A DNA stretch of 64,000 nucleotides, taken from the NCBI RefSeq assembly GCF_041248615.1, contig NZ_CP158425.1, one strand, 5' to 3'. This DNA comes from Escherichia coli. Its GTDB lineage: Bacteria > Pseudomonadota > Gammaproteobacteria > Enterobacterales > Enterobacteriaceae. Shown here in pieces: positions 17,889-57,900 of this stretch (the first letter of the stretch is position 1; each line of letters starts with the position of its first letter). Under the pieces are notes generated by a model. That model made no database searches. It was not told the DNA's origin and saw nothing but the letters and a program-made list of their open reading frames with translations. A program made the position numbers and the translations under genes.

Positions 17889-18178
17889 ACCTTCCCCTCC
17901 TTATATAAAACAATCCGCCAGCAGCTCGACTGGCGGACAATGTTTGACTGGCAACAGCAAGGACATACTATTTAGTGACAAGTTTGATCTTGGTTTCACT
18001 CATTCGAAGTCGAAACTCCTGAAAACCCTGCTCTACCGCTAACTCCAGCCACTCAACGGGAATGGTATAGCTACAATCAGACCCACCCAAAGCGGCATCA
18101 CAAGCGTAATCCCAGTCCTCATCCTGAACCGCCCCGGGAATCCTGGAGACTAAACTTCCTGAGAAAGAGGTAAACAGG

Positions 18179-18505
18179 ATGACTAAAAATACTCGTTTTT
18201 CCCCCGAAGTCCGTCAACGGGCAGTCCGTATGGTTCTGGAAAGTCAGAGCGAATATGACTCACAATGGGCGACAATTTGTTCCATTGCTCCAAAGATTGG
18301 CTGTACGCCGGAGACTCTGCGTGTCTGGGTTCGCCAGCATGAGCGGGATACCGGGGGCGGTGATGGAGGGCTCACCACCGCTGAACGTCAGCGTCTGAAA
18401 GAGCTGGAACGTGAAAATCGTGAACTGCGCCGCAGTAACGATATCCTTCGCCAGGCTTCCGCTTATTTTGCGAAGGCGGAGTTCGACCGCCTCTGGAAAA
18501 AATGA
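18179..18505 (+). CDS. IS3-family transposase OrfA (HTH)
   Basis: The 108-aa [22 protein letters not shown]... matches IS629/IS1203 OrfA as I remember it. An A6 run at 18497-18502 lies at the orfA/orfB junction. Confidence 0.9.
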
Positions 18506-19392
18506 TGCCACTGCTGGATAAGCTGCGTGAGCAGTACGGGGTCGGACCGCTATGCAGCGAACTGCATATTGCCCCGTCAACGTATTACCACTGTCAGCAA
18601 CAGCGACATCATCCGGATAAACGCAGTGCCCGTGCGCAGCGCGATGACTGGCTGAAGAAAGAGATACAGCGCGTATACGATGAAAATCACAAGGTATACG
18701 GTGTGCGTAAAGTCTGGCGTCAGTTGTTACGGGAAGGTATCAGAGTGGCCAGATGCACTGTGGCACGTCTCATGGCGGTTATGGGACTTGCCGGTGTTCT
18801 CCGGGGTAAAAAGGTCCGTACGACCATCAGCCGGAAAGCCGTTGCCGCAGGCGACCGCGTAAACCGTCAGTTCGTGGCAGAACGACCTGACCAGCTGTGG
18901 GTGGCTGATTTTACTTACGTCAGCACATGGCGGGGCTTCGTCTATGTGGCGTTCATCATTGATGTGTTTGCCGGATACATCGTGGGGTGGCGGGTCTCAT
19001 CGTCCATGGAAACGACATTCGTGCTGGATGCACTGGAGCAGGCGTTATGGGCCCGTCGACCGTCCGGCACGGTCCATCACAGTGATAAAGGTTCTCAGTA
19101 TGTATCGCTGGCCTACACACAGCGGCTTAAGGAAGCCGGATTACTGGCATCAACAGGAAGTACAGGCGACTCGTATGACAACGCGATGGCGGAGAGCATC
19201 AATGGTCTTTACAAAGCGGAGGTAATACACCGTAAGAGCTGGAAAAACCGTGCAGAAGTGGAACTGGCCACACTCACGTGGGTGGACTGGTATAACAATC
19301 GACGATTGCTGGAAAGGCTGGGCCATACTCCTCCGGCAGAAGCAGAAAAAGCTTATTATGCTTCCATCGGAAACGATGATCTGGCAGCCTGA
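18502..19392 (+). CDS. IS3-family transposase OrfB (DDE integrase core)
   Basis: 296 aa with the VADFTYV...HSDKGSQY...[18 protein letters not shown] signature. Probably expressed as an OrfAB fusion by -1 frameshifting (inferred from IS3-family biology). Confidence 0.9.
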
Positions 19393-19776
19393 GTTCACAG
19401 ATAAAACACTCTCCAGGAAACCCGGGGCGGTTCATCCAGTTTTGGATTCATCCCCTGGGCGTAAGCCACAGTATCGCGGGATGCGGGAGAGCCCTCAAGC
19501 TCAGCATTAGTGATCAGGTATACACCATGACTGTGCGCGAGAAGCACTTTTGGCACCAGATGTGTGCTGGCAATTTTTGAGGATGAGGGAAAGAAAACCC
19601 TACCAGCTTTACGCGCCTCTTCTTCAGTCTGTCCCTCAGCGTTAAGGAGGGCTCCCCCCGGATAGCATGCCGGGTCATAGATCTGATCTGCGGTGACCGA
19701 AAACGTTTTTGCGGTGCGAATTTCTTCGATCAGTTTATTAATATCCGCCATTTCAAATACGAGAGTGGTCACAGGC

Positions 19777-20088
19777 TTACTCTCCCTCTTCAGTGGACAA
19801 CATCAGATACTTTGTTGCCAGCAGAAGCTCTCCCACATCCTTGAGGGACAATTCAGCTTTGCCTTCTACGGCAAGCTGCAAGCGCTGTCGAATTGCATGA
19901 ACAGAATCTGAAGATAAAGATGCCATTTTGCGCAAAACGGCATTAGCCTTTTCTACAGCAGGATACAGAATTTCTGAGTTGGTATTATCTTCGTCATTAT
20001 CAAAGATAATTTCAGAATCCATATTGATGTTATCTTCAAGCCAGCTTGAAAGCACTTCAAGTAATGACATCACCTTTTCAATTTGCAT
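19777..20088 (-). CDS. Acidic hypothetical protein
   Basis: A GAGGAGG RBS precedes the ATG at 20088 (MQIEKV...). The track ORF start at 20124 lacks an RBS. Confidence 0.5.
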   Translation of the reverse strand: MQIEKVMSLLEVLSSWLEDNINMDSEIIFDNDEDNTNSEILYPAVEKANAVLRKMASLSSDSVHAIRQRLQLAVEGKAELSLKDVGELLLATKYLMLSTEEGE

Positions 20089-20137
20089 ATCGCCTCCTCT
20101 GTTAATGTGAAACAAATATAACAAAGTGGCTTACCCG

Positions 20138-20151
20138 GCTAATAACCTGAG
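20138..20151 (-). promoter_or_regulatory. Conserved promoter-like motif (CTCAGGTTATTAGC)
   Basis: About 50 nt upstream of the ATG at 20088. Confidence 0.45.
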
Positions 20152-20388
20152 CAGAAAGTTTTCGCACTTTGTTTGAAAACAACTTTTCTGCTCAGGTTAA
20201 TGTTAAAGTCGCTGTGTAAAAGATAAAGGGCACTAAAGATGATTTAAGCATCAAACAGACTAAATCGGATTCCGTCTTTTATATCGCTTTTAAAATAGAA
20301 TGAATGAAATATAAATTTAGCGTTTATGATTGAACGCTGTAGAGGTTGATTTATCCAGTGATATTCAGTTTGGGGCCTTAAAAAGGTT

Positions 20389-20619
20389 TTATTTTGGATT
20401 CGAATTACAAAGGGAGCACCGACATTTTTCTGGGGGCTCCCGCAGAGAAAAAGCGGTGAGGCTATGAAGACGAAGAGGAGGTATTCGACGAAATACTGTA
20501 TGGCCACAGGAGAGCTTCAGCACCCATATCCTGCCGTCTCGCTCGCCTGTAATGATTTCAACATGTACAACGTCATACCACGTAGTTGTATTTCTCACTT
20601 TGTTTATGCTTCCTGACAC
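20389..20619 (-). CDS. Small Cys-containing hypothetical protein
   Basis: GTG start inside the end of the upstream gene, with no RBS. CGH...CRCSLC cysteines suggest a zinc ribbon. Confidence 0.35.
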   Translation of the reverse strand: MSGSINKVRNTTTWYDVVHVEIITGERDGRIWVLKLSCGHTVFRRIPPLRLHSLTAFSLREPPEKCRCSLCNSNPK

Positions 20620-20924
20620 CGTGTGAACGCAATCTTCGTCTGGATGCGTTCATAGATGGAAAACTGCCTTTCAATGGAACCGGCATTAGACAGTAATTCA
20701 TGAAGCTCAGCAGAGTCTGTATCGGGAACGATAGCTACAGAAACTCCATATCTCCGTCCAATTTTGATTAGGTGCGCAAGCTGTTCTTTTTCGGATTCTG
20801 TGAGCATTGCCAGATCTCTTCCGGACACCTGCTCTATAAACGAACCAAGGTTTTTGGGAAAAAAGGGTTCGGCATCAGAGTTATGTGCTGGGCGCGTCTG
20901 CGGCTTATCGAAGCTATTGGGCAT
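20604..20924 (-). CDS. Hypothetical protein
   Basis: 106-aa ORF. Operator palindrome at 21074-21088 upstream. Confidence 0.45.
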   Translation of the reverse strand: MPNSFDKPQTRPAHNSDAEPFFPKNLGSFIEQVSGRDLAMLTESEKEQLAHLIKIGRRYGVSVAIVPDTDSAELHELLSNAGSIERQFSIYERIQTKIAFTRCQEA

Positions 20925-21073
20925 GAATAGAACCTATACAGTTAGAGAACTGGAGAATGGATAAAGACTCTATGAAAATCAGTTGTGCTACACTCGAATG
21001 CTAATCAAGCTTTATGATGGCTTTAGTAGGGATGGCCGTCAACTTAAACCGATAAGAAGGGAGCCATTTATCG

Positions 21074-21088
21074 TTAAAGTAACTTTCC
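21074..21088. promoter_or_regulatory. Palindromic operator-like site, copy 5
   Basis: TTAAAGTAACTTTCC. Confidence 0.5.
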
Positions 21089-21103
21089 CGGATGATGCTC
21101 TTT

Positions 21104-21331
21104 TTACGAAATAAGTTTCTCACACTCCTGTATAAGAGTCGCCCTGGAACGAGATCGACTGGCTTTGCTTAATGAAGAGCGTAGTTGATGTTCATCAACC
21201 CCATCAGCGATAAACTGACCGATTTTTGTTTCAAGCCGCTGCATTGCCTCGTAAAGCTTGGCATCCGCATTATTTTTAAGAAACCTCAGTATATAATCAG
21301 CAATAATTTGGACGGGAGTGAACTTATACAT
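21104..21331 (-). CDS. Small hypothetical protein
   Basis: AAGGA RBS; 75 aa. Confidence 0.5.
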   Translation of the reverse strand: MYKFTPVQIIADYILRFLKNNADAKLYEAMQRLETKIGQFIADGVDEHQLRSSLSKASRSRSRATLIQECEKLIS

Positions 21332-21558
21332 TATGTATCCTTAAGACGTTGTGTTAAATGATTCAAAAAAATTTATAACCAGACGTAAATTATTATACAT
21401 AAGTAAGCACTTTAGCTAACAAGCTGGAGGAGTGAATTTCGGTTAGCAACTATATTTTAGAAGCTGATTGCTGAATAGACAAAGCCCGGCTTACCGGGCA
21501 TTCATTTAATTAGATGCTAGAAATCTGACCCGTCGTCTGACTTTTATTCCAGGCAGAG

Positions 21559-34494: not shown

Positions 34495-34791
34495 TTAATG
34501 GATGAGCGATTTATAGTCATGTGCTGACAAATGGACATTATGTGCGCCATCATTCCATTCAAAGAATAATCGATACTTAGAGTTTACTCGAATGGAGGAA
34601 TAACGGTTTGACGTCATTCTTAAGCGTTCATAACGCAAGCTGTTGGATAATAACTCCCGCTCACTCTGGACATTATCCAGCGTTTCGAGTCGACACAGAA
34701 TCGCGTTAATAATTTCAGAAGGAATACCTGCCGTTGTTTTTCCATTACGGAAGAACTTTTCAAGCCGTCTGTCTTTAAATGAATGGATCAT
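34495..34791 (-). CDS. HigB-like toxin (RelE/ParE superfamily, plasmid-maintenance killer type)
   Basis: MIHSFKDRRLEKFFRNGKTTAGIP...RLETLD...SIRVNSKYRLFFEWNDGAHNVHLSAHDY follows the MIKSFKHKGLKLLFEKG..GVP...RL..ID...SI.V...WRI.F....GDAY.L...DYH pattern of HigB killer proteins. GGAGG RBS. Confidence 0.65.
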   Translation of the reverse strand: MIHSFKDRRLEKFFRNGKTTAGIPSEIINAILCRLETLDNVQSERELLSNSLRYERLRMTSNRYSSIRVNSKYRLFFEWNDGAHNVHLSAHDYKSLIH

Positions 34792-35745: not shown

Positions 35746-38136
35746 TTATGTTTGAGGGAATTCTATAGCAAATGTGGCCGTGCCAGATTGACCACTTACA
35801 GCGGGAGTAACGGGATACGTGCGCTCTTCACCATTACCAAGATCCAGTGACAGCGATTTAGTTTCACCAGGCTGGACCGTAACTCCGGCAACCGTAACGC
35901 CGAACTGGGCATTTTTCTGAACAGTCAGGGTTCCGTTTAACTGTCCGGTAATGATAGAACCGTCCTGACGCCGCAACACACTGGTTCGGATGATGGCCAG
36001 CGGCGTGTTGTCCGTTGCTTTCAGTGCTACGGCTGTGGCCAGCGTCTTGAGATTATCCAGCATAATCAGATTCGCAGGCTGGTAGGTAAAATTAAGCGTT
36101 TTAGTGGTCCGGTTACCTGATTCGTCAATAGCCAGTGCCTCCAGATGATACATCTGTCCCGATTCGTCAGTGTTGGGGAAGATTCTGGGGTATTCCGGAA
36201 TAAAGACATCCTTGGATAACGGCGTGAATGCCAGGGTGACCTTTTCAGAGTTAGGTCCACCAGCGAGCTGAAGCGATGTCAGGGAAGCATCCCCAGAGGC
36301 ATCAGTAACGCTTATGCGAAGGTTCTCAAGCCCTTTAACCAGTTTTCCTTCTGCGTCTGCGCCATTAAAACTGAACGCGATAACCGGAAGCGTTGAGTCA
36401 ATTTTCAGCGGTGCATTAAGCGTTTTGGTTCCGGTGTTTCCAACAAGATCCGTGGCAGAGACGCTAACCACCGTATAATCCCCGTCCGGTAGACCAGCGT
36501 ATGAGAAGGTGGCGTTTTTGGTTTTATAATCGCTTTCACTGACGGTCACAGGCTTCAGCGTGAAAGGTTCCCCCCGGGCATTTTTAAGGGTGGCTTCGAA
36601 AACTTTGGTATCCCAGTAGCTGATGTTCCAGGCGTTGACGCGATCATTATCGGTGGCCGTCATAGTGATTGTCTTGGAGGCCTTGTTTACCTGAGCGACA
36701 TTAACCACCGGTGGGTTGTTATCCCAGATAACCGTAAAATTACCAGCAAGCGCATCGAATATGCTGTCACCATCTTTTCCCGAGTAAAGGTGCAGATACT
36801 CAAATCCTTTGTCACTGGTGTAGTTGAAGTTAACCGTCATCTCGCATGAACTTTGTCCGATAGGTATAGTGCAGAACCAGGCTGCATTTTTTACCGTTCT
36901 GAACTTTTGCACGTATGGTCGGGGTTCAGCGGTTACCTTTATGCGGCTAATGGTGGCGGTTTTAACGCTGATTGAGGCCTGAGTTAACCACTCACTGGTA
37001 TCACTCCGGTACATCTCTTTAGCCACTATCTTCGGGGCTATTTCCATCGCCGGGGCTGGAGTGAAGTTGAGGGAGTTATGATGAATTCGTCTTACTCCTC
37101 CTGCCAGAGTCTGGAATTCATGATAAGTATCCCCCACATTGGGATATATGTATTTGAAAGTATAAATATTATAAGTGCTATCGGACGTCTGGAAATTCGA
37201 GTCCGCCCAGCCATATTTGGAACCGTTAACAGCAGTAAAGTCACTTTTTTTCCTTAATACCCGTACGGAAATAGGGTTCTGGAAGACGGTCATGCCAGAC
37301 TGATAAGTGACCCATGATCCGGTAGTGGCGTCCTGCACCTGGATGATATCGTCAGGCTTAACCCGATCAATTACGCTTCGGCGGCTTAGTTCGATCCTGT
37401 TTCCCGCTTTGTCATAAAGGTAGATCCCCACTTTATATTCAGAGCGGTTTTCCGGTGCCAGGGCATTGCTGCTTGCGTCGGCGACTTGAACGGTTACGCT
37501 ACCTTCCACTGTATTAATTTCCGCTGGCTTTTTACGCTCCACTCCAGCGGCATCGGTTATGAAATATTCAGCATTAGCAAGCCCGGAACCTTTATCACTC
37601 AGTCCATTAAAGACCAGTGCCTGGACGCTGGCGTACTGCATACCGGCTGGTACTGAAGTGAAGATCGCTTCGCTGCCAAAGTTCCACCCGTTTCTCGTAT
37701 AACTTATGGTACCCGTTGCCGGAGGCGTTCGGTCAATTGCAAGCGGGTAATCCTGCCGGGAGACCTCCTTCCCTTGCAAGTCGGTAATCACCTCTCTGAG
37801 GGTGAAGCTATCTTCTCCCATCGCTGGTACGGTCAGAGTCTTGCCGTAATAATCAAAGCCTGTCGAAGATGTGGTACGGTCATCTACGGTAACCAGGCTG
37901 CTTTTCGTGCTCCAGATGAGGCTCCCGTCACTTTTCAGCAGACTGAGCGTAATATAACGGTCCAGACCGGAAATAACGGCAACGTCAAAGCTCGTTACCG
38001 GATTAATCCATACGGATGCAGGCGATACGGTCTTTTTAACGTTCAGGGTATCTTTAAAGCTGAATTCTGCGATTTCAGCGGAAGCTCCTGCGCTGAAACC
38101 TGCAAATGCAATAAGCAGGGCTAGTTTGATTTTCAT
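35746..38136 (-). CDS. Secreted large beta-rich (Ig-like repeat?) protein, paralog A
   Basis: AGGAGA RBS before the ATG at 38136. Signal peptide MKIKLALLIAFAGFSAGASA. Shares GLDRY, YYGK.L.PA.GE, GLENLRI, GGP and EYPRIFPN blocks with 43689-46109 and 50384-52840. Confidence 0.7.
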   Translation of the reverse strand: MKIKLALLIAFAGFSAGASAEIAEFSFKDTLNVKKTVSPASVWINPVTSFDVAVISGLDRYITLSLLKSDGSLIWSTKSSLVTVDDRTTSSTGFDYYGKTLTVPAMGEDSFTLREVITDLQGKEVSRQDYPLAIDRTPPATGTISYTRNGWNFGSEAIFTSVPAGMQYASVQALVFNGLSDKGSGLANAEYFITDAAGVERKKPAEINTVEGSVTVQVADASSNALAPENRSEYKVGIYLYDKAGNRIELSRRSVIDRVKPDDIIQVQDATTGSWVTYQSGMTVFQNPISVRVLRKKSDFTAVNGSKYGWADSNFQTSDSTYNIYTFKYIYPNVGDTYHEFQTLAGGVRRIHHNSLNFTPAPAMEIAPKIVAKEMYRSDTSEWLTQASISVKTATISRIKVTAEPRPYVQKFRTVKNAAWFCTIPIGQSSCEMTVNFNYTSDKGFEYLHLYSGKDGDSIFDALAGNFTVIWDNNPPVVNVAQVNKASKTITMTATDNDRVNAWNISYWDTKVFEATLKNARGEPFTLKPVTVSESDYKTKNATFSYAGLPDGDYTVVSVSATDLVGNTGTKTLNAPLKIDSTLPVIAFSFNGADAEGKLVKGLENLRISVTDASGDASLTSLQLAGGPNSEKVTLAFTPLSKDVFIPEYPRIFPNTDESGQMYHLEALAIDESGNRTTKTLNFTYQPANLIMLDNLKTLATAVALKATDNTPLAIIRTSVLRRQDGSIITGQLNGTLTVQKNAQFGVTVAGVTVQPGETKSLSLDLGNGEERTYPVTPAVSGQSGTATFAIEFPQT

Positions 38137-43688: not shown

Positions 43689-46109
43689 ATGAAACATCTC
43701 GCTTTTATTACTGCTGTAGCCGGACTCGGTATGTCTGTTCAGGCCCCAGCTCAGATATATGAATCGGCCTTTAAGGACACGAACGGTATTGAGATCCACG
43801 CCCCGTCTTCTCGTCTTATGCTTAATCCGGCATCACCGGTAACTTTGACACTTATTTCAGGTCTTGATCGTTTCGTTAATGTCAAAGTCACGAAAGACAC
43901 TGGAACTGTCATTCTTAATACTACGACTACACGGACGGGTGTATCAGACCGACTAACAGCTGCTGACGGTAGTGAGTTCTACGGCAAAAAAGTAACTTTG
44001 CCTGCTTTGGGTGAAGGCAAATTTGTCGTTCAGATAAACGTGTTAGATCTCAATCAGAAGCCTGTAGCGACCTATAACTATAACTGGCTAATTGATGTCA
44101 CCCCTCCAGCGGCAAATGCTCTTACCGCTAATACTGGTTCTGGCTCTACCGCTGGTGACGTGTGGAAGCTTGGATTAGAGGCAACGGGGCAGTATGACTT
44201 CACCTCTTCGGGCGTAAGTGATGCAAATGGTATTGATAAGGGCCTAATATATATTTACAGGCAGGACGGTAGCCTCTACAGCACTACACAGATGCAGTAT
44301 GACGTATCCGGCCAAAAGATGTACCACACTTACTCTAAGAATTCAGTTAAGGGAACCGGAATACCAGACAGCAACCTGGATGAAGACTTTACTGCAAAAG
44401 TTGTTATCTTCGATAACGCAGGTAATAGCCGAACGCTGCCAACTCAAAAATTTCGCTACGACAACACGCTGGGTGAGATGACACTGTGGGCCGTTCATGA
44501 TCCAAATACGTCTTCCAGCGTCGTACCCGGGGTTTCTAATTATCCGGCTTACAAAGCCGGTATGGTCGTTAACGAAAACCCTATTCGATTAGTCTACCGG
44601 ATCCCAAAATCTAACTACCGTGCTTATTCAGAAGGTGGGCTTCAGTTCATCAATCAATATTCCGCCCCCAAAGAGATAGCTGTAGACAGCACTTATGCTT
44701 ATGTTGAAATGACTCTTCCCTATGGCTCAATTAATGGGGATATGGCTCGTATGGCGAACTTTGGCCAGTGGGGAGGGTATTATCCGTCATACAGCCTCGT
44801 TCTAAACCCATCTGCAAACCAAACGCCTGCATTTGCGGGTACCTGGGTAGATTTCCTCGATGATAAGGGGAACTGGGTTAAGTGGAAGGATTTTGAGAGT
44901 GTGGCTTCATCACGACTGCCAATTAAAATTTCCCGACTTCGTTTTAACGTTGAAGCCCGGCCCTTTGCACAGGAGATCGGCGGTAAGGCGACCTGCACCA
45001 TTCCGGCAGGAAAAACCTCGTGTGAAGCGCCTGAGACGTTTGATATGGCCTTGGGTACCCAGGGCTACAATAGAATCCTTTACTTCGTTCGCAGCATCAG
45101 CAATCCCATTTTGCGGTCTGAGCAATGGATTATGACACGCTGGAACAATAAACAACTGCCGGTAATAAACTCGATATCATATGACGAGACTAACAAGCAG
45201 CTGGATGTACTGGCGTCACTTGAAGGCGATGGTAACTGGTTCGACTCGGTCTCATTGAGGGAATTTTATCTTTCCGATAAGAACACCGGTACCCGGATGT
45301 CACCAACAGGCGTAATCAAATCTCGTATCTCAGGTAACTACACGATTGCTTATGATTTATCCCGTCAGTCTGAAGGAAAATACAACGTTGAGGTCAACAT
45401 CAGGGACTTCTTCCAGAACCAGACCAATAAAACTTTCGGAGAAATTGCTCTGGATAACACTCCTCCGACAGTGGCCATAACATTCGACGGAAAGCCGGTA
45501 AAAGACGATACGGTAGTGTACGGCCTGGAGAACCTCAGGATCGCTCTGGCAGATAATCTGACAACCCCGAGGATAACCCGTCTTCAGCTCGTAGGTGGCC
45601 CCACAGCTGATAACGTTGAGCTTACGTGGTCACCGGCAGGCAAAGATACATACATGCCTGAGTATCCGAGGCTGTTCCCAAATTTCGAACCATCTGAAAA
45701 TTATTCAATTAGCGTAACAGTTGCCGATAGTCAGTCGAATACCAAAACCTATACTCAGAAGTTCAGTTATCTACCGAATAACCTTGTGCAGTTACATAAT
45801 CTACGCACATTGTCGGTCAGTTCACCTCTCAAAACGACAGATGGCGTACCACTTGCGTACCTGTCCACTAACGTTCTGCGTAAGACAAATGGAGAAATTG
45901 CTAAAGGGGTCCAGAACGCAACGCTGACTGTGCGGAAGGATGCAGCCTTCGGTATTAAATTTAATGGGGCACAGGCGGCTCCAGGCGAGTCAGTTGAGGT
46001 GCAAATAGATATGGGCCAGGGGGATAATCTTCTGTTACCCGTTTATCCTTCCGAAAATGGGAAAGTTGGCACCTCAGAATTCATGATTCAGATCGACGAG
46101 TTGAAGTAA
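43689..46109 (+). CDS. Secreted large beta-rich (Ig-like repeat?) protein, paralog B
   Basis: AGGGGA RBS. Signal peptide MKHLAFITAVAGLGMSVQAPA. Long collinear similarity to 50384-52840, for example RFNVEARPFAQEIGGKATCTIPAGKTSC against RFNVQARPYDQKITGGATCSIPAGSTTC. Confidence 0.7.
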   Translation: MKHLAFITAVAGLGMSVQAPAQIYESAFKDTNGIEIHAPSSRLMLNPASPVTLTLISGLDRFVNVKVTKDTGTVILNTTTTRTGVSDRLTAADGSEFYGKKVTLPALGEGKFVVQINVLDLNQKPVATYNYNWLIDVTPPAANALTANTGSGSTAGDVWKLGLEATGQYDFTSSGVSDANGIDKGLIYIYRQDGSLYSTTQMQYDVSGQKMYHTYSKNSVKGTGIPDSNLDEDFTAKVVIFDNAGNSRTLPTQKFRYDNTLGEMTLWAVHDPNTSSSVVPGVSNYPAYKAGMVVNENPIRLVYRIPKSNYRAYSEGGLQFINQYSAPKEIAVDSTYAYVEMTLPYGSINGDMARMANFGQWGGYYPSYSLVLNPSANQTPAFAGTWVDFLDDKGNWVKWKDFESVASSRLPIKISRLRFNVEARPFAQEIGGKATCTIPAGKTSCEAPETFDMALGTQGYNRILYFVRSISNPILRSEQWIMTRWNNKQLPVINSISYDETNKQLDVLASLEGDGNWFDSVSLREFYLSDKNTGTRMSPTGVIKSRISGNYTIAYDLSRQSEGKYNVEVNIRDFFQNQTNKTFGEIALDNTPPTVAITFDGKPVKDDTVVYGLENLRIALADNLTTPRITRLQLVGGPTADNVELTWSPAGKDTYMPEYPRLFPNFEPSENYSISVTVADSQSNTKTYTQKFSYLPNNLVQLHNLRTLSVSSPLKTTDGVPLAYLSTNVLRKTNGEIAKGVQNATLTVRKDAAFGIKFNGAQAAPGESVEVQIDMGQGDNLLLPVYPSENGKVGTSEFMIQIDELK

Positions 46110-46276: not shown

Positions 46277-48112
46277 GACAATGGGAGTGAGTGTCGAACC
46301 CCTTGAGTAAGGATACTTGGTAAATATACAGCCCCGGGGATTCTCTTCCTTCAACCGGGGATGACAACGGGAGTGAGTCCGGCAACTCACACCTGTTGTC
46401 ACTTCTCTGACATATCGTCATACGAGCTTACTCAAGCGCATCCACAAAGATGGGATCGTTTTGAATCTAAACTGGTACTGGTTAGCCAGTCACTTGCATC
46501 TACTCCCCCGTCGATATTTAAGTGACAATTGTAGTGATCTGCAATACTGGTGTCTCAGAAACACTGACGACGGTAGAGACTCAATACCCTAACCCCTGAC
46601 AACAGAAGTGAGCTTAGAGGTGTTACGCTGCTGTCACCTAATGCTTGGGAATTGCCTGACTCACAACCATTGTCATCCGGAGCTACTGATTAACGTTGAA
46701 CCGCTGGACTTTAATGACAGTGGTAGTGATGGATAGGCTCATTTCCATTGTCGTCATTTTATCGGACAAGCCTCTTCGTCCTACAGGTTTAAGCTGACAA
46801 TGGTAGTGATTGGATGATCTCACTACTGTTGTCACTCAGTTCTTTGAGCGGACCCTTCCCTCGGTTGGTCGGCATTAACAACGGTAGTGACTCGATTGGC
46901 TCACTGCCATTGTCATCGTGTAAATGACGTACCTTATCAGCTCAGCTGAAAGCAATGACAACGGTAGTGACTCTAATTGCTCACTGCCATTGTCGTCGTG
47001 TCTATTGAGAGCCTTATCAGTGCACCTGAAAAGCAATGACAACGGTAGTGATTCTAATGGCTCACTACCGTTGTCACCGTGTGTATTGAGAGGATGGTCC
47101 ACCTAACTGGACGTATATGACAATGGTAGTGACTTTAATAGCTCACTACCATTGTCGGTGTGTGAATTGAGAGGATGAGCAGCTCAGCTGTACGTCCATG
47201 ACAATGGTAATGACTTAATGAGCTCACTACCGTTGTCACCCTGTTAATTAAGAGGCTCATCTGCTCTTCTGGAAGGCTATGACAACGGAAGTGACTTGCT
47301 GGGCTCACTGCCATTGTCGCCGTATGAATTGAGAGGATCATCCGCTCTTCTGGATGGCAATGACAACGGTAATGACTTAATAGGCTCACTACCATTGTCA
47401 CCCTGTGAATTGAGAGGATGATCTGCTTAACCAGACGGCCATGACAACGGTAGTGACTTTCTGGGCTCAATACCGTTGTCACCCTGTGAGTTAAGAGGTT
47501 GACCCGCTCTACTGGACGGCCATGACAACGGTAGTCACTTTCTGGGCTCACTACCGTTGTCACCCTGTGAGTTAAGAGGTTGACCCGCTCTACTGGACGG
47601 CCATGACAACGGTAGTCACTTTCTGGGCTCACTACCGTTGTCGCCATATAGAATGAGAGGAGCATCAGCTCAACTGAACGGCAATGACTACAGTAATGAG
47701 CTGGATGAAGCATAACCATTGACATCTGGCCCAACCGGAAGCCGTATTCGCCAATCCAATCGAGATTCACAATGGCCGTGACTCGCCGCATTAAGTTCCG
47801 GTGTCCTCCCAAAGCTGAACGCACACTCGGAGGACAATGACAATGCCAGTAAGGTACACATCATTACCATTGTCACTATAGCTACCAGAGAAGCCGGGAT
47901 TTGAATGTCGATGGTAGTGAGTGGGTCAACTCACTGCCATTGTCACCCCGTTACGATATTTTCCGTTGGATGTACTGGCCAATGAAGTAAAGCGTAGAAA
48001 CCGGGTGTTAACAGGTGACTCAGGAGAAAGCGTTGAATTTCGCAATCTCGATCTACATAGGGTGGTAGAGAACAATGACAACGGTAATGACTTTTGACTC
48101 ATTACCGTTGAC
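46277..48112. repeat. Array of about 20 inverted iteron pairs (RepA-site palindromes) downstream of repA
   Basis: Each unit is GACAAYGGTAGTGA, 8-10 nt, then TCACTRCCRTTGTC. The arm sequence equals the direct iterons at 49496-49593 and 49919-50017. Confidence 0.85.
46796..47685. repeat. Core of the array: 11 tandem units of 80-81 bp
   Basis: Left arms start at 46796, 46877, 46957, 47038, 47119, 47200, 47281, 47362, 47443, 47524 and 47605. The spacers between pairs are also conserved. Confidence 0.9.
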
Positions 48113-48187: not shown

Positions 48188-49276
48188 TTAGCTGGCGTTG
48201 CTGTTCTTTTTCTGGCTTCGAAGACTACGAATATAGCGCAGTTCTTCAGCGGTTAAATCATGGACGGTAAGAACATCATCGCCGTCAATCGGGTCAGCTG
48301 GTGGGCATAACTCACCTTCTAAAACAGAAGACCCTGAGTTCTCTTCTTCATCTTCAACCACTTCTAAAGGAGGCTGAGTATTGTTCAAATTCAGATCGGG
48401 ATCCCGCTTATGAATCTGGAAGTATACTTTTCCGTCTTTCTTAATTTCGGTGTACTTGAGGTATCCTATCGATGCCAACTCTTCAAGAGCCTTTCTCACG
48501 GTAGCATTCTGACTATTTGCTCGTGTTTTGAGGTTCAGACGATTTTTCAGCCGAGTAAGGGATATCGGTATAGGATTTGGCGGTAATGACTCTATGAACG
48601 TATAGAGAGCCTGGGCGCTTTCCTTCTTGGCCAACTCCTTAATTGCCTTCAGCTGCATCAAAACCTTATGATCGTATTGATAGAGCTCGAAAATCTTAGG
48701 ATCAACCTGAAGGACAACCTGATCTGATTCCGGGTCTAACAGGGCAGACTGTACCAGATGCGTTGTATAGACTTTGGACGAGTTATTACTGGTGAACGAC
48801 AAGGTAACGGATGCTAACCTGCGTAAGGAGGCGTCTATACGTTTTCTGGACGCTGTAGATGAGCGATAATTTTCAGGCGTACATAGCTTGAGGAATTCAG
48901 TGAATTTTAAGCTTATCGTGTCATTGTTAATCGGATGATTGGCATAGGTTCGAATGATGCCCATCCACGTCTTAAAATCTACTGACATATTAAGACGCTC
49001 ACCGACAATTGAAATATTGGTGAACCCCTCGCTCTCCATTAAAGAGAGCGTCTGTAACTCTTTCGTTGCGTCAAAGCCAACCGTTTTATATTCCCGATTT
49101 TGACGCCCCACACTCTTTGGTGATGGGACGAACAGCCCGAGCCGCATCAAAGCAATAGACTGCACCGTACGGTTGCTGTTAGGACGCAAAATGATGTCTT
49201 TACCTGATTCTTTCTCTCTAACAGAGAAAGCCCTGGTGACCAGGTCCTGCTGCTCAGTATCTTTCTCTTTAGTCAT
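48188..49276 (-). CDS. repA: Replication initiator RepA, P1/RepFIB type, with an acidic C-terminal extension
   Basis: [28 protein letters not shown] and [31 protein letters not shown] align with the P1 RepA blocks [28 protein letters not shown] and [31 protein letters not shown] (from memory). Iterons flank the gene on both sides. Confidence 0.85.
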   Translation of the reverse strand: [362 protein letters not shown]

Positions 49277-49339: not shown

Positions 49340-49490
49340 ACTGGATGGATCATTGTGATGATCCATATCTGTGCATAAGTTCTACCTAAAAAAACGACTC
49401 CACTCATTAAAACTTGGCAAAAACTCTTTGCATACAATGACCTGCAACTCTTATCAACAACGGATCAGATCAAGTTAAAAAGATCTAATG
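49340..49490. promoter_or_regulatory. GATC-rich repA promoter/origin-proximal region
   Basis: GATC at 49348, 49360, 49463, 49468 and 49482. Palindrome GGATCAT-TGTG-ATGATCC at 49347-49364. AT-rich. Confidence 0.5.
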
Positions 49491-49495
49491 AAAAG

Positions 49496-49593
49496 TCACT
49501 ACTATTGTCGCTCTGATCACTACTGATGTCAAAAAACTCATTACCAACGTTATAATAATCACTACTAATGTCAAAATAATCACTACTGTTGTC
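49496..49593. repeat. Origin iteron set 1: five direct repeats at exact 21-bp spacing
   Basis: TCACTACTATTGTC (49496), TCACTACTGATGTC (49517), TCATTACCAACGTT (49538), TCACTACTAATGTC (49559), TCACTACTGTTGTC (49580). Confidence 0.85.
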
Positions 49594-49796
49594 ACTGATC
49601 ACGTCTCAGGCCTTGTGCCGTCTGGCCTGGAGGCAGCGGGGATCTCTTTTGATCTATCAGGAACACTAAGGTACTAATTATTGGAACTACCTTGTGGAAA
49701 ATGGGGATAAATAAATGCTTAGTTCTTATACAGGTCTCAACTTGCCTCCCTGATAAAAACTGTCGTCAAAGCTAAATCACAGCCACAGGCATTTTC

Positions 49797-49805
49797 GGTG
49801 GATAA
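49797..49805. promoter_or_regulatory. DnaA-box-like sequence
   Basis: GGTGGATAA is the reverse complement of TTATCCACC, an 8/9 match to TTATCCACA. It lies between the two iteron sets. Confidence 0.3.
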
Positions 49806-49918
49806 ATTTTTGAGAAATAGAAGCATACATGCAGACTCGTGTCGCAAGTAATTGAAAGTAATGATTTATTTAAATAATGCGAGTCACCTTACCTCACAGT
49901 GGAAGTTTAAGTCTAACC

Positions 49919-50017
49919 TCACTACCATTGTCACTTAAAATCATTACCAACGTCGAAATAGTCTCTACCATTGTCTTTTAAGTCACTCCCGTTGTCACTT
50001 ATGTCGCTACTGTTGTC
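49919..50017. repeat. Origin iteron set 2: five direct repeats at 21-22-bp spacing
   Basis: TCACTACCATTGTC (49919), TCATTACCAACGTC (49941), TCTCTACCATTGTC (49962), TCACTCCCGTTGTC (49983), TCGCTACTGTTGTC (50004). Confidence 0.85.
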
Positions 50018-50245
50018 AGTGACAATGCTCCAGCCCAGTAACCATGCGGCCTACAGCGTACCGGGATCTTCTTTGTACTCTCTGGCACCTTTGGGATCAT
50101 TTATTGGATCTACATGAGGGATAAAATCTTTTGACGATTTCGTAGTGCAGTTATACCAGCGACTTAGCAAGACAAAAGCTGCAATTTAGTGACGAGTTAC
50201 TAGTCTGCCCAACAAGAGCAATGCAGAGAAGATATGTGGTGAAAT

Positions 50246-50279
50246 GACCATGGTAGTGAGTCTAATCACTACCATGGTC
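50246..50279. repeat. Isolated inverted iteron pair
   Basis: GACCATGGTAGTGA (50246-50259), 6 nt, then TCACTACCATGGTC (50266-50279). Confidence 0.8.
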
Positions 50280-50383: not shown

Positions 50384-52840
50384 TTATTTTAATTCTTCAA
50401 TGTTAATCATGAACTCAGATCTGCCAGTAAGGCCGGATACAGCAGGGAAAATAGGAAAGCTACGGCTGTCCCCGAGCCCCAAATCCAGTTGAAGCTCTTT
50501 GCTTTCACCTGGCATCGCAGAAACGCCATTTACAGTCACGCCGAATGCAGCGTCCTTACGGACAGTAAGCACTGCGTCCTGAAGCCCTGTAGCGATTGAA
50601 CCATCCTTTTTACGCAGCTGGCTGGCATACAGAACAGCCAGAGCAGTATTGTCAGATGTTTTGAGAGAAGCATTGACAGCTAAGGTTTTCAGATTCTCTA
50701 GCCTGACGAGATTGTTTGGAAGGTAGTTAAATTCGACTGAGCTTTCTTTAACGTTGTTCATCTCATCTTTGGCCTGAACTGTGAGAGTGTATGTTTCGCC
50801 TTCATTAAGAGACGGAAAGATCTTGGGATAATTAGGTGCATACAGGTTGTTTCCCAGATTCACCCAAGACAATTCCACCGCATCAGAAACAGGGCCACCG
50901 CGAAGAGTCATACGGCTTAAGGATGGTTTAGTTAGAGCATCGGTGAGCTGTATACGGACGTTCTCCAGCCCATATACTGTTACGTTTTTGCTGATCGGTT
51001 TTCCTTCGTAGCTAATACTTACAGATGGTGCTGTATTATCAACGACAACTGTTTGATAAGGGAGGTTACCGGTATTGTTGAATGTATCTTGGGCATTAAT
51101 CACCACGTTATAACTGCCTTCTGGTACCTCTTTCATGTTGAACTCATACGTGTAGTTCCCAGACGCCATATTTCTACCTGTTTGTTTGCCGGTTACGCTT
51201 ATTTCTGCGTTGTTACGGTTTTTATCTGACAACCAAACTCGATTTACATAAACATGGTCGAAATATGAACCATCTCCAGGTTGATTCACGTAAACCTGGA
51301 GAATGTTGGTGGTTTCATTGTAATCAAATCCAGTGACGGAGGGACCCAGTGTATGCCAGGCTATATTCTCCCATATAGGGGCAAAGAAGGTTGCTTCGGT
51401 GGTTGACCTTACTTCATAGCCACTATGAAGATAACCGGTAGTGCCATTTATAATATCCTGGGGCAAAGAGACGGTACAGGTTGTTGAGCCAGCTGGAATA
51501 CTGCATGTTGCTCCGCCAGTGATTTTTTGATCATATGGCCTGGCCTGTACATTGAATCGGATATTAGTAAGTTTTATAGGCATATCAGATGCCTTGAACA
51601 GGTTCCAGTTTACGCTGTTGAACCATGTTCCATCAGCCTTTTGTCGTTCTATGGGTGAACTTCCCCAAGCCGGACTCTTTACAGAGGCAGGATCCCAGTT
51701 GAGCCAGCTGGCATACTGACCAAGATCTCCTCCAGACCATTGATATGTATTCACAGGTCTATAGTAGTTTCCATCTAAGGCACCCTGTGGCAGCTTAACT
51801 TCCACGTAGACATAGGTGGCATCTTCGGAAAGGACCTGTACTCCGCCATAGTTATTGGTAATGCTCATGCCACCATTTCGATATGGCTTCCAGTTAGTTC
51901 TTGGGATACGTATAACCAACTTGTAGGGGTTTTCCAGCACTGTAAGGCCTCGTTTAAACGGGACGTATCCCGAAGAAATGCCGGGTACAACACTGGTGCT
52001 TACACGTGAGTCATGAACTGCAAATGGCGTAAATTCTCCCATTTGATCGTCATATAAAAACCGCTGGGGAGGAATGTTAAGCGTATTTCCTGCCAGGTCC
52101 GTAACGATGAAATTGAAGGTGAATTCTTCATCAAGATCACTTGAGGGCATGCCAGCCTGGGTGTTCATATCTTTAATCCACGGATAGAACGCACGTTTAT
52201 TGGCTGTGTCATAACTCAGGTTATTGTCGGAGACCACAGAACCATTACTTCGTTTAATGACAAGACGGATCTTGTCAATTCCACTAGCATCCTCAATACC
52301 GTCTGCAAATATAGAAAACTGGCCACTACCGCCTCGGCCCAACTCCCAAAGTGGCCCAGAAAGTACCATGTCGTAACCTGCGTTTTGACTCGGATAAATA
52401 CTCTTATAGCGTGGAGGAGTTGTATCAACGATGAAATGATAAGTAGATGTGCTCACTACAGTCTGGCGAATATCCAGAGTTTCATTGACTACAGTAAAGG
52501 TCCCTTCTCCGAGCGCCGGTAGAACCATATCCTTTCCATAGTATTCTGTTCCATCGGCAGCAACGATACGATCTGCAACGCTCGTTTTGGTCGAGACGGA
52601 GGAATACATAACCTTTTTATCGCTGTCTCGTGTGACCGTCACTCGCTCGTACCGATCAAGACCCGATATCAAGTTCAGAGTCAAAACACCAGCGGGATTA
52701 AGATATGTTTGTGTTGCAGGTTTGATATTCCGAACAGCCTTATTGGTATCTGTAAATGAGTAGCTAAATACCTGAGCATGTGCCGAAGATACAGTAGCAA
52801 GGGCAGTTGCAACCATGCAGCCAATTAGAGTTTTACGCAT
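50384..52840 (-). CDS. Secreted large beta-rich (Ig-like repeat?) protein, paralog C
   Basis: GGAG RBS. Signal peptide MRKTLIGCMVATALATVSSAHA. C-terminus SEFMINIEELK against SEFMIQIDELK in paralog B. Confidence 0.7.
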   Translation of the reverse strand: MRKTLIGCMVATALATVSSAHAQVFSYSFTDTNKAVRNIKPATQTYLNPAGVLTLNLISGLDRYERVTVTRDSDKKVMYSSVSTKTSVADRIVAADGTEYYGKDMVLPALGEGTFTVVNETLDIRQTVVSTSTYHFIVDTTPPRYKSIYPSQNAGYDMVLSGPLWELGRGGSGQFSIFADGIEDASGIDKIRLVIKRSNGSVVSDNNLSYDTANKRAFYPWIKDMNTQAGMPSSDLDEEFTFNFIVTDLAGNTLNIPPQRFLYDDQMGEFTPFAVHDSRVSTSVVPGISSGYVPFKRGLTVLENPYKLVIRIPRTNWKPYRNGGMSITNNYGGVQVLSEDATYVYVEVKLPQGALDGNYYRPVNTYQWSGGDLGQYASWLNWDPASVKSPAWGSSPIERQKADGTWFNSVNWNLFKASDMPIKLTNIRFNVQARPYDQKITGGATCSIPAGSTTCTVSLPQDIINGTTGYLHSGYEVRSTTEATFFAPIWENIAWHTLGPSVTGFDYNETTNILQVYVNQPGDGSYFDHVYVNRVWLSDKNRNNAEISVTGKQTGRNMASGNYTYEFNMKEVPEGSYNVVINAQDTFNNTGNLPYQTVVVDNTAPSVSISYEGKPISKNVTVYGLENVRIQLTDALTKPSLSRMTLRGGPVSDAVELSWVNLGNNLYAPNYPKIFPSLNEGETYTLTVQAKDEMNNVKESSVEFNYLPNNLVRLENLKTLAVNASLKTSDNTALAVLYASQLRKKDGSIATGLQDAVLTVRKDAAFGVTVNGVSAMPGESKELQLDLGLGDSRSFPIFPAVSGLTGRSEFMINIEELK

Positions 52841-53839: not shown

Positions 53840-53844
53840 AAAAT

Positions 53845-53866
53845 AAACCTCTCTAGTGAGAGGTTT
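53845..53866. terminator. Bidirectional rho-independent terminator
   Basis: AAACCTCTC-TAGT-GAGAGGTTT, a 9-bp stem between convergent genes. A-run before it and T-run after it. Confidence 0.65.
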
Positions 53867-53896
53867 TATAAACCTGAGCCACCAATCTAATTAACT

Positions 53897-54178: not shown

Positions 54179-54620
54179 GCTTTACCTCAGTGGCTGAATA
54201 TTGATGGTTAATATCTTTAATCACCCGTAAGCACTTAGTGCATACCTTAGTTCGATTTGTCTGCTTGTCCAGAGTGTATTTAACTTCAAGTTGACCTCCA
54301 GCATTAAGCAAAGTGAGCATCTCATCTTCTAACACGCTTCGGTAAATGGTCTTGGCCGAGAGTGTGCCCGGTAAAGAGTACTCAACATAATTGTTTGAAA
54401 CTCTTACCGATTTAGGGATTTTACCACTGAGCTGGGTTTCATTCGTTGAAGGCATTACAGTTACTTTAATCACAGTTGCCGGTGACCAGAAATCCTGATA
54501 ACGCACTTTATGAATTTTATCAGCTCTAAGGCCTAACCACACATTTCCGGCGATAAGAACAATAAGCAATCCATAAACTGATCGTCGAATGTTACGCCTT
54601 TTAATCACAATGTCCCCCAT
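54159..54620 (-). CDS. Membrane-anchored hypothetical protein
   Basis: 153 aa with an N-terminal TM segment YGLLIVLIAGNVWLGL. Exact start uncertain. Confidence 0.5.
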   Translation of the reverse strand: MGDIVIKRRNIRRSVYGLLIVLIAGNVWLGLRADKIHKVRYQDFWSPATVIKVTVMPSTNETQLSGKIPKSVRVSNNYVEYSLPGTLSAKTIYRSVLEDEMLTLLNAGGQLEVKYTLDKQTNRTKVCTKCLRVIKDINHQYSATEVKHGQSKI

Positions 54621-54668
54621 CCCTCAAATATCATTCTAAATAACTGCACCAGGATATCATGAGCGTAA

Positions 54669-54845
54669 TTAATAGAATTCTTCATAACCGGGGTTTTCAG
54701 TTGAGTTTGCGGACTCTTTACTTTGCGGTTTCTCACCCTCTAGTTGAGTATCCCTGACAGGCTTGGATTTACCCATGCTCCTCTGAAAGGTATCCATAAC
54801 AAACTCAATATCTTCTTCTGGCAGGCTGGTGGGTTGGTTGCTCAT
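54669..54845 (-). CDS. Small hypothetical protein (58 aa, below the track cutoff)
   Basis: ATGA overlap with the stop of the methyltransferase gene (54842-54845). Reads MSNQPTSLPEEDIEFVMDTF...NPGYEEFY*. Confidence 0.35.
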   Translation of the reverse strand: MSNQPTSLPEEDIEFVMDTFQRSMGKSKPVRDTQLEGEKPQSKESANSTENPGYEEFY

Positions 54846-55967
54846 AGGACTTCCTCTTGTTGAATACGTTCGGCGTACAGGATGCGAACCGAAACGGTCG
54901 TGTTTTCAAACTCGTTCTCAAAAACGTCCATCCATTCCGTCCGGAATTCTTCCCCCAAAAGGTTATCGAGCCCCTGAAGAGATAATGGAAGAACGGCTGC
55001 TAGAGATCCCCCGGCTGCGAGATGAGATGCAGCTGCCTGGAGATGCCGCCTGGCCCGGTTATCGGCAAAAGGTGGGTTCATCACGACATAATCAAACTTC
55101 TTCTGTTGATTAGACTTAGACCATGTGAGGAAGTCAGCTTCTGTCGTATCGTATCCCTTAGCCCGGGAGATAAGGCAATTCAAAGTATCAAGCTCGATGC
55201 CAGTAACGATCACACCGGCAGGGAATGATTTAAGCAAATCCGCATGGCCAATATTAGGCTCCAGGAGGGTATCCCCTTCCCCTGCACCAAGCAGGGAAGA
55301 TACATATTCGCTGATTCGGCAAGATGAAGGGTAAAACTGATGCGATACAATATCAGGCATCTCCCCTATCTGGCCGATGTAACGAATAACCTCACACGGA
55401 TCATAGGAAAATGTCACATCGTATTTTGTTACTGTTGCCCCTAAGAACCGAAGGGTGTCAGCGGCAACACTCGAAGATTTGCGTTCGGCGAGAGACCCTA
55501 AAGATGTCCAGCAACTCCATTTATTGTCCCCGTCATTTTTAAACATCAGTTCAGAAAGCTGCATCCGGGTATCAAAGTCGATGCACTGCTTAAGTACAGG
55601 GAATGCCTCCAAAGATTTCTTGCTATGAGCCATACGGTCGGCAGGTAATGCCAGCGGTACGATAGCTGATAAAATATTGTTAAGCCGCTCGGCGATATCA
55701 GGGTGGACGTCAATATGCATTGATCCATTTTTGTAAACCCTGAAACGAATACTGTTGCCATCGATGCAGATCCATTTTCTGAACCCCTCATGTTCGACCA
55801 ACGCCTCAACCAATGATTTGGTGTTATGGATCGCCTTCACCTGTTCGCCACGGAAGAATGCGCATATAACGCGGAGCTCGCTCAGCGGTGAAATGCCAGA
55901 CTCTTTAAAATCCTGAACCGCCCCGGGAATCCTGGAGACTAAACTTCCTGAGAAAGAGGTAAACAGG

Positions 55968-56294
55968 ATGACTAAAAATACTCGTTTTTCCCCCGAAGTC
56001 CGTCAACGGGCAGTCCGTATGGTTCTGGAAAGTCAGGATGAATATGACTCACAGTGGGCGGCAATTTGTTCCATTGCCCCAAAGATTGGCTGTACGCCGG
56101 AGACTCTGCGTGTCTGGGTTCGCCAGCATGAGCGGGATACCGGGGGCGGTGATGGTGGGCTCACCAGCGCTGAACGTCAGCGTCTGAAAGAGCTGGAACG
56201 TGAAAATCGTGAACTGCGCCGCAGTAACGATATCCTTCGCCAGGCTTCCGCTTATTTTGCGAAGGCGGAGTTCGACCGCCTCTGGAAAAAATGA
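55968..56294 (+). CDS. IS3-family transposase OrfA
   Basis: 108 aa; differs from copy 1 at a few residues ([18 protein letters not shown]). Confidence 0.9.
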
Positions 56295-57181
56295 TGCCAC
56301 TGCTGGATAAGCTGCGTGAGCAGTACGGGGTCGGACCGGTATGCAGCGAACTGCATATTGCCCCGTCAACGTATTACCATTGTCAGCAACAGCGACATCA
56401 TCCGGATAAACGCAGTGCCCGTGCGCAGCACGATGACTGGCTGAAGAGAGAGATACAGCGCGTATACGATGAAAATCATCAGGTGTACGGTGTGCGTAAA
56501 GTCTGGCGTCAGTTGTTACGGGAAGGAATCAGGGTGGCCAGATGTACAGTGGCGCGCCTCATGGCGGTTATGGGACTTGCCGGTGTTCTCCGGGGTAAAA
56601 AGGTCCGTACGACCATCAGCCGGAAAGCCGTTGCCGCAGGCGACCGCGTAAACCGTCAGTTCGTGGCAGAACGACCTGACCAGCTGTGGGTGGCTGATTT
56701 TACTTACGTCAGCACATGGCGGGGCTTCGTCTATGTGGCGTTCATCATTGATGTGTTTGCCGGATACATCGTGGGGTGGCGGGTCTCATCGTCCATGGAA
56801 ACGACATTCGTGCTGGATGCACTGGAGCAGGCGTTATGGGCCCGTCGACCGTCCGGCACGGTCCATCACAGTGATAAAGGTTCTCAGTATGTATCGCTGG
56901 CCTACACACAGCGGCTTAAGGAAGCCGGATTACTGGCATCAACAGGAAGTACAGGCGACTCGTATGACAACGCGATGGCGGAGAGCATCAATGGTCTTTA
57001 CAAAGCGGAGGTAATACACCGTAAGAGCTGGAAAAACCGTGCAGAAGTGGAACTGGCCACACTCACGTGGGTGGACTGGTATAACAATCGACGATTGCTG
57101 GAAAGGCTGGGCCATACTCCTCCGGCAGAAGCAGAAAAAGCTTATTATGCTTCCATCGGAAACGATGATCTGGCAGCCTGA
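56291..57181 (+). CDS. IS3-family transposase OrfB
   Basis: 296 aa, near-identical to copy 1 OrfB. Confidence 0.9.
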
Positions 57182-57900
57182 GTTCACAGATAAAACACTC
57201 TCCAGGAAACCCGGGGCGGTTCAATCCACCCTTAATTTCTGCCAGGGGTATTTAGACGGCTCGCAAACTCCGGTAGTGATCATGCGGGTGGAGAACCCAA
57301 AAGCTTTGTTTGTCTTGTGACTGCGGCTCAGAGACTGGAAGACGTCGTAAACCCTTTCTTTAATAAATTGATTGCGGTCATTAAGCAAAGCAACGACTGT
57401 GCCCACTACAGCGTCAGCTGTGAAATCAGGGATCACCTGAGGCGGCATAATATAACGGTCGGCCGTAAACTGCTTATCCCATTCGTTACGTTTGGCATCC
57501 GACATGATAGGCAAAACATCAGTGAGTGCCATAACGCGTTTCCAGTATTCTGATCTCAGAGCGTTTTCTGCGAACAAGGCATCCGCTTCTGAGATGCTGT
57601 GGTTGTAGCCTGAGAGATAAGAATAAAGTTTCTGGTGATTGTGGGTTTTGAACTGGACAGCCATGAGTTTCAACAAGCAGAGTTCATCATTATAGGACTC
57701 AACAAGATCCGCGATAATGCCGAGCTCTTTGCGCATATCTGGAAGAAATGTTTCAGGAGAGCTAACCACCAGGCTATGAGAGGTTGTTAAAGCCAGTACG
57801 CTGTGACCTGCATTATCGGGTTTAGCTTCAGAATCAAGAGATGACATTTTACCGGTCCTTTAGAAAAAACTTTTACCAGGATAGCAACGTCGCTCAGTAA

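Follow-up and report, generated by a model that had tools for sequence, protein, structure and literature searches.

How did two directly repeated insertion sequence (IS) elements come to lie on either side of a replication gene in the backbone of an mcr-1 plasmid, and what could recombination between them do to that plasmid? We addressed this question for a 64,000-bp stretch of Escherichia coli DNA (the window), which is identical to positions 174,074–238,073 of NZ_LT599829.1. These positions are the final 64 kb of p14408_M1, a plasmid of E. coli NRZ14408. This IncHI2 plasmid, of a type well known for colistin resistance, has a length of 238,073 bp and carries mcr-1.1. The window contains two IS629-family elements, at 18125–19434 (copy 1) and 55914–57223 (copy 2), both on the plus strand. 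We consider it very probable that two circulating IS629 variants inserted independently and recently into the backbone of p14408_M1, and that they left direct repeats that could split the plasmid.

Two IS629-type elements, each within a gene

The structure of the locus is demonstrated at the level of single bases. A repeat search of the window returned a single long two-copy direct repeat with a spacing of 37,789 bp, and base-level alignment gave a length of 1310 bp for each copy. The copies have the same orientation and are separated by 36,479 bp, while the outer span that includes both of them (18125–57223) measures 39,099 bp. A preliminary description of this stretch had given the same length, orientation and limits, which were exact to the base.

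Both copies have the same termini (TGAACCGCCCCGGG...CCCGGGGCGGTTCA) with TG...CA ends, and the left end (TGAACCGCCCCGGGAATCCTGGAGA) matches the reverse complement of the right end (TGAACCGCCCCGGGTTTCCTGGAGA) at 23 of 25 bases. Each copy encodes an intact orfA of 108 aa (18179–18505 in copy 1 and 55968–56294 in copy 2) and an intact orfB of 296 aa (18502–19392 and 56291–57181), which lie on the plus strand and overlap in the −1 phase. The frameshift-stimulating pseudoknot ALIL (Rfam RF01497) was found on the same strand at 18460–18576 in copy 1 (120.2 bits) and at 56249–56365 in copy 2 (121.5 bits). Pfam domains were HTH_Tnp_1 in orfA and rve/DDE in orfB, and OrfB matched the NCBIfam model transpos_IS3 (IS3 family transposase) with 314.6 bits. 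In RefSeq, both copies are annotated as ‘IS3 family transposase, programmed frameshift’. At the level of sequence, the open reading frames (ORFs), the ends and the frameshift signal are all intact in both copies.

Both elements are IS629-type members of the IS3 family, as had been proposed. Compared with an element that its depositors annotated as ‘IS3 family IS629’ (LC567824.1), copy 1 has 6 differences in 1310 bp (99.5% identity) and copy 2 has 25 (98.1% identity). Copy 1 is also 100% identical to the IS that interrupts int in the phage 21 record AF017626. IS1203 and IS3411 have been described as isoforms of IS629 (PMC3271280). The length of 1310 bp, the ends, the orfA/orfB frameshift, ALIL, the DDE-type orfB and the target duplications of 3–4 bp known from IS629/IS1203/IS3411 of E. 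coli and Shigella were all matched here. Substantive differences from IS629 were not found; IS629-like and IS1203-like segments do alternate in copy 2, yet this mosaic is itself widespread.

Each copy has its own target duplication. Copy 1 is flanked by TCC (3 bp; 18122–18124 on the left and 19435–19437 on the right) and copy 2 by ATCC (4 bp; 55910–55913 and 57224–57227). This agrees with the target duplications of 3–4 bp reported for IS629 (PMC3271280). Deletion in silico of the IS plus one copy of the duplication at each site rebuilt two minus-strand ORFs. At site 1, the rebuilt ORF encodes 163 aa from a GTG start and matches Pfam DUF3085 (PF11284). Its C-terminal fragment lies at 17968–18124 and its N-terminal fragment at 19435–19772, where the annotated ORF (19395–19772) extends 40 bp into the IS. 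At site 2, the rebuilt ORF encodes 563 aa, with DUF4942 at residues 96–290 and a C-terminal N6-adenine methyltransferase region with the NPPF motif DYVVMNPPFADN. The fragment with the NPPF catalytic domain lies at 54842–55913, within which a separate ‘methyltransferase’ is annotated at 54842–55840, and the N-terminal fragment lies at 57224–57847. Neither rebuilt protein had a match in NCBIfam.

The same duplications and the same in-frame reconstruction, of a DUF3085-like gene and a two-domain NPPF methyltransferase, had been put forward in the preliminary description, and they find further support in the near-isogenic IncHI2 mcr-1 plasmid pMS8345A (CP025402). Over 1597 bp at site 1 and 1596 bp at site 2, the rebuilt sequence has 100% identity to the corresponding empty site in pMS8345A. 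Empty site 1 contains TCC once (...CTCATCCAGTTT...) and empty site 2 contains ATCC once (...TTTAAAATCCACCC...). Moreover, pMS8345A annotates both target genes as intact, with lengths of 492 bp (DUF3085) and 1692 bp (DUF4942/methyltransferase).

We aligned pMS8345A, with its ends joined as a circle, to positions 16,001–64,000 of the window. The alignment consisted of three blocks, at 16964–18124 (100% identity), 19432–55913 (99.997% identity, with one mismatch in 36,482 bp and zero gaps) and 57223–64000 (6,778 bp at 99.985% identity, with one mismatch). pMS8345A shares its gene order, RepHI2, RepHIA and iterons with p14408_M1 and differs by only 2 substitutions in 44 kb of backbone. Unlike p14408_M1, it has both target genes intact and has no IS629-type copy at either site. 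Over the aligned stretch, the plasmids do not differ in structure apart from the two IS elements.

All four IS flanks contain TCC (...CATCC left and TCCAG... right of copy 1, ...AATCC left and ATCCA... right of copy 2). The two insertions used near-identical target triplets, and cross-pairing of the outer flanks mimics the duplication of a composite transposon. The duplications alone are ambiguous between two independent insertions and a rearranged or composite arrangement. This ambiguity in pairing is resolved by the gene reconstruction and the empty-site comparison.

An alternative explanation would be a composite transposon (IS629-cargo-IS629), in which the 39.1-kb span was inserted as a unit and brought RepHI2, the replication initiator encoded between the copies, into the plasmid. 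The outer flanks, left of copy 1 and right of copy 2, indeed share ATCC, which by itself could be read as a duplication of the whole span. However, each IS has a duplication of its own and splits a gene whose halves lie on either side of it. Furthermore, RepHI2 is found at the same position in ~1000 relatives that lack the IS pair, and the interior is collinear with the IS-free pMS8345A, with equal length and in continuity with both outer flanks. This collinearity rules out the composite transposon, which has a negligible probability, and identifies the segment as native to the backbone. The mcr-1 transposon Tn6330 (ISApl1-mcr-1-pap2-ISApl1), elsewhere on p14408_M1, likewise has two IS copies of the same family around a segment. 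In contrast to Tn6330, however, the segment bracketed by the IS629-type copies was not imported as a unit.

Independent and recent insertions of two variants

In the preliminary description, the two copies were said to differ at a few positions. Differences do exist, but they amount to 21 substitutions (1.6%, or 98.4% identity), and these are all clustered at IS positions 124–644. They change 3 amino acids in OrfA and 4 in OrfB. The copies are identical at positions 1–123 and 645–1310, such that the last 666 bp form a perfect tract. The similarity of the copies, 98.4% over 1.3 kb, is far too high to have arisen by chance.

At 19 of the 21 differing sites, copy 2 has the allele of an element that the Prokaryotic Genome Annotation Pipeline (PGAP) names ‘IS1203 family’ (plasmid CP122916). 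Outside positions 124–635, copy 2 equals copy 1 at each of the 29 sites where this IS1203-family copy differs from copy 1. Without a single mismatch (100% identity), copy 2 is found in at least 40 other chromosomes and plasmids of E. coli, at loci that are unrelated, and copy 1 likewise has perfect matches (100% identity) at many unrelated loci of other E. coli. Because the exact mosaic circulates elsewhere in E. coli, it was not formed on this plasmid. The clustering of the IS1203-like differences, together with the unchanged circulation of both variants, therefore demonstrates that the copies came from different donor elements by two independent insertions.

These results also bear on the possibility that one copy was derived from the other by intramolecular transposition within this plasmid, followed by divergence or gene conversion. 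Identical ends, an identical 3' stretch of 666 bp and a shared orientation would all fit such a scenario. Yet, the 21 differences form one block that matches IS1203-like alleles, and both variants are known in identical form (100% identity) from many unrelated loci in E. coli. In addition, the backbone differs from that of pMS8345A by a single substitution in 36.5 kb, too short a divergence for 21 changes to have accumulated within 1.3 kb. An origin of either copy from its counterpart on the same plasmid is very improbable, and was ruled out by the IS1203-type block, the circulation of both variants and the near-zero divergence of the backbone.

For site 1, we searched PLSDB with a query composed of the 800-bp flank, the IS and the other 800-bp flank, using a threshold of at least 80% coverage. 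Only the source record was occupied, and the next matches were empty sites with 55% coverage. For site 2, no PLSDB record besides the source had an IS at that exact position. The surrounding regions are common, with 696 PLSDB records covering at least 80% of a 14-kb region around site 1 and 1062 covering at least 80% of a 13-kb region around site 2. The preliminary description had considered that related elements might have these genes naturally split or absent; instead, the target genes are intact in hundreds of relatives that lack the IS copies. Because the sites are empty elsewhere and the backbone is nearly identical to that of pMS8345A, both insertions are private to p14408_M1 and recent.

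Another alternative is an assembly artefact, in which one or both IS copies are misplaced repeats. The record is flagged as ‘linear’, and IS629-family copies are common in E. coli. However, a misplaced repeat would not yield a flank duplication of 3–4 bp, whereas the duplications observed here are clean and of a length typical of IS629, the junctions are exact and fall within ORFs, and the two copies have distinct internal sequences. An artefact is therefore extremely unlikely.

A further question is whether the insertions were retained by selection, such that loss of the orphan methyltransferase or of the DUF3085 gene would benefit the plasmid or its host. In other IncHI2 plasmids, IS629-family elements were found at two other sites in the same methyltransferase gene, and at three sites in the neighbouring dam gene or its upstream region. 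However, the great majority of relatives have an intact methyltransferase gene, and IS629-type copies are found in other parts of the backbone of relatives too. In addition, our survey had no control for insertion density elsewhere in the backbone. Retention by selection thus seems unlikely.

These other insertions, of IS629/IS1203 type and independent of each other, occur in five other IncHI2 plasmids within 4.4 kb of site 2 (window-equivalent positions 55632–60003). Two of them lie in the DUF4942-methyltransferase gene, at 55632–55634 with target duplication ATA and at 57683–57685 with TTC. One lies upstream of dam (59460–59462) and two lie in dam itself, in two relatives (59898–59900 and 60001–60003). 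All are on the plus strand. The 4.4-kb region near site 2 may be a tolerated or preferred target of IS629, although the survey behind this suggestion was uncontrolled. The apparent bias of the six IS629-family insertions near site 2 towards the same orientation was rejected as an artefact, since the search joined same-strand pieces only and would have missed insertions in the opposite orientation.

The bracketed interval and the possible outcome of recombination

Comparison of the interval with the remainder of the plasmid demonstrates which functions the repeats enclose. The interval (19435–55913) holds mostly hypothetical backbone genes, together with a PAPS-reductase-family gene and two methyltransferase genes. 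It also contains repHI2 (48188–49276, minus strand), the replication initiator gene, named after the RefSeq annotation of WP_000159529.1. The RepHI2 protein (362 aa) had no Pfam-A or NCBIfam HMM match. Its identity is supported by the RefSeq annotation and by the 1021 IncHI2-type records that share the region; in total 1236 records match the repHI2 region, and these 1021 cover at least 80% of it. It is a side observation that RepHI2, a long-known plasmid initiator, is named solely by annotation based on sequence identity.

Iterons are present on both sides of repHI2 and have a common core (TCACTACCGTTGTCA), as is typical of the iteron replicon to which RepHI2 belongs. The downstream field (46362–47963) includes an array with a period of 81 bp and 10.3 units (46871–47699; core TGACAACGGTAGTGA), while the upstream iterons (49471–50279) have a spacing of 21 bp. 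Within each 81-bp unit there is an imperfect palindrome of ~40 nt (TGACAACGGTAGTGA...TCACTACCGTTGTCA). In many relatives the span is 81 bp shorter (3720 versus 3801 bp), and therefore the number of iteron units varies.

Three paralogous genes with Ig-like domains, each encoding ~800 aa with DUF4165, Big_3_2 and Big_3_3, lie at 35746–38136 (minus strand), 43689–46109 (plus strand) and 50384–52840 (minus strand). All three are inside the interval, contrary to the two that had been counted previously. The sole recognisable stability-type gene in the interval encodes a HigB/RelE-like toxin (34495–34791, minus strand).

The presence of a replication gene with iterons between the repeats had thus been recognised correctly, but the interval does not hold ‘the replicon’ of the plasmid. 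A second replicon, RepHIA, lies outside. The gene repHIA, encoding a RepB-family initiator, occupies positions 1–876 of NZ_LT599829.1 and starts one base past the end of the window. RepHIA iteron-like repeats were found at 63866–63949 of the window and at 1016–1598 of the record, and RepHIA with its iterons lies 6.8 kb beyond copy 2. According to the annotation of the record, Tra2, ParAB, ParMR and Tra1, the latter with the MobH relaxase and TraD, are also located outside the interval. The same holds for Tn6330 with mcr-1, the ter operons and a multidrug-resistance region. With RepHI2, RepHIA, Tra1, Tra2, ParAB and ParMR all annotated, p14408_M1 has the two-replicon backbone of IncHI2 plasmids, and MOB-suite typed it as IncHI2A + rep_cluster_1088, MOBH and MPF_F. 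Both repHIA and repHI2 are present in the published description of the IncHI2 backbone (PMC9019673). Similarly, PMC5347186 cites a paper by Page et al. (2001) whose title refers to ‘two autoreplicative regions’ of R478.

Taken together, the following course of events is very probable. Copy 1 (IS629-type) and copy 2 (the IS629/IS1203 mosaic) transposed separately, presumably by copy-out-paste-in, one splitting the DUF3085 gene and the other the DUF4942/N6-adenine methyltransferase gene. As a by-product, 1.3-kb direct repeats were placed around 36.5 kb of otherwise unaltered backbone. Both split genes have probably lost their function.

Direct repeats of 1310 bp with a perfect tract of 666 bp are an adequate substrate for RecA-dependent recombination. 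The preliminary description had likewise regarded the direct repeats as a substrate for homologous recombination, and this view would appear legitimate given the 666-bp tract. Recombination between the copies may occur; a crossover would divide the plasmid in two, and the identical 3' tract is the likeliest site for it. The large product would be a 200,284-bp plasmid with RepHIA, ParAB, ParMR, Tra1, Tra2 and mcr-1, which should stay replicative and conjugative. The small product would be a 37,789-bp RepHI2 circle with the HigB-like toxin gene, but with no annotated partition, relaxase or transfer genes. With a crossover in the 666-bp tract, the large product would be left with an IS of the copy 1 type and the circle with one of the copy 2 type.

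Several observations weigh against this account. To detect the deletion junction, a query was composed of 1500 bp of the left flank of copy 1, the IS and 1500 bp of the right flank of copy 2. At a coverage of at least 80%, this junction was found in no PLSDB record and in none of 5,426 complete E. coli genomes. The IS joined to either flank of site 1, a configuration that covers the circle junction, was found only in the source, although no separate search for the circle junction was made. Moreover, a small plasmid with RepHI2 only was not seen in a spread sample of 60 of the 1236 records, in which the holders of a substantial part of the region were all at least 122 kb. Finally, with respect to the loss of gene function, the entire NPPF catalytic domain is preserved in the C-terminal methyltransferase fragment, for which an ORF is annotated. 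Because no predicted junction was found among PLSDB and the 5,426 complete E. coli genomes, recombination between the copies is hypothetical.

Two further expectations of the preliminary description do not hold for the predicted products. Loss of the replicon from the transfer backbone would not result in loss of replication, because the large product retains RepHIA, both partition systems and all transfer genes. Conversely, the circle had been suggested as a smaller autonomous derivative. Its stable inheritance is doubtful, because the 37,789-bp circle has no annotated partition, relaxase or transfer genes. A bolder scenario is that the IS pair leads to fission into a conjugative 200-kb RepHIA plasmid with mcr-1 and a stable, compatible RepHI2 mini-plasmid of 37.8 kb, or that the 39-kb span moves as a replicon-carrying composite transposon that seeds multi-replicon cointegrates. 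We consider this scenario distinctly unlikely.

Experimental work on IncHI2 plasmids offers precedents for the large product. In an evolution experiment, clones of the IncHI2 plasmid pJXP9 lost ~165 kb including repHI2, and the plasmid was maintained (PMC9599605). More generally, large IncHI2 deletions, one of which removed repHI2, gave maintained plasmids (PMC9599605, PMC9019673). Directly repeated mobile elements served as substrates there too, both in the evolved pJXP9 and in the IS26- or Tn1721-mediated resolution of a chromosomally integrated IncHI2 plasmid (PMC9599605, PMC9019673). However, these events were experimentally observed and mostly involved IS26, IS15DI or Tn1721 in resistance regions, whereas the repeats of p14408_M1 are IS629-type elements in the backbone, for which no product was observed.

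Strain-specific markers and annotation

The two insertions are routine IS-mediated plasmid polymorphism, in which a common E. coli IS inserted twice into non-essential genes of a well-studied plasmid family, and both elements already carry an annotation in the public record. Deletion of backbone segments between directly repeated IS copies is also well established, as is the tolerance of IncHI2 plasmids to the loss of repHI2. Nevertheless, the insertions provide strain-specific markers that separate p14408_M1 from near-identical mcr-1 IncHI2 plasmids such as pMS8345A, and could aid outbreak or plasmid tracing.

Two annotation issues arise. Firstly, RefSeq/PGAP lists the gene fragments as ordinary coding sequences (CDS), named ‘hypothetical protein’, ‘methyltransferase’ and ‘DUF4942 domain-containing protein’, and not as pseudogenes. 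The annotation thus presents the split genes as independent, complete CDS and does not indicate that they are interrupted. Secondly, replicon typing would assign a deletion derivative to IncHI2A alone.

With regard to the topology of the source, NZ_LT599829.1 is flagged as linear in both collections, but its first base is that of the repHIA start codon, and its collinearity with the circular pMS8345A extends across this point. Evidently, the record represents a closed circle whose numbering was set to start at repHIA.

A hok/sok type I toxin-antitoxin locus lies just outside the interval, at 14169–14483 (Rfam sok, 81 bits; Hok CDS at 14169–14288), and would remain on the large deletion product. 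Nearby, the RGI layer of PLSDB names a hypothetical backbone protein of 93 aa (window 15503–15784) ‘Brucella suis mprF, defensin resistant’ at 100% identity, which looks like a database artefact. Elsewhere on the plasmid, at 101176–101994 of NZ_LT599829.1, there is a shorter DUF4942-domain gene of 272 aa that has no methyltransferase domain. This gene may represent a partial paralog of the methyltransferase gene that is split at site 2.

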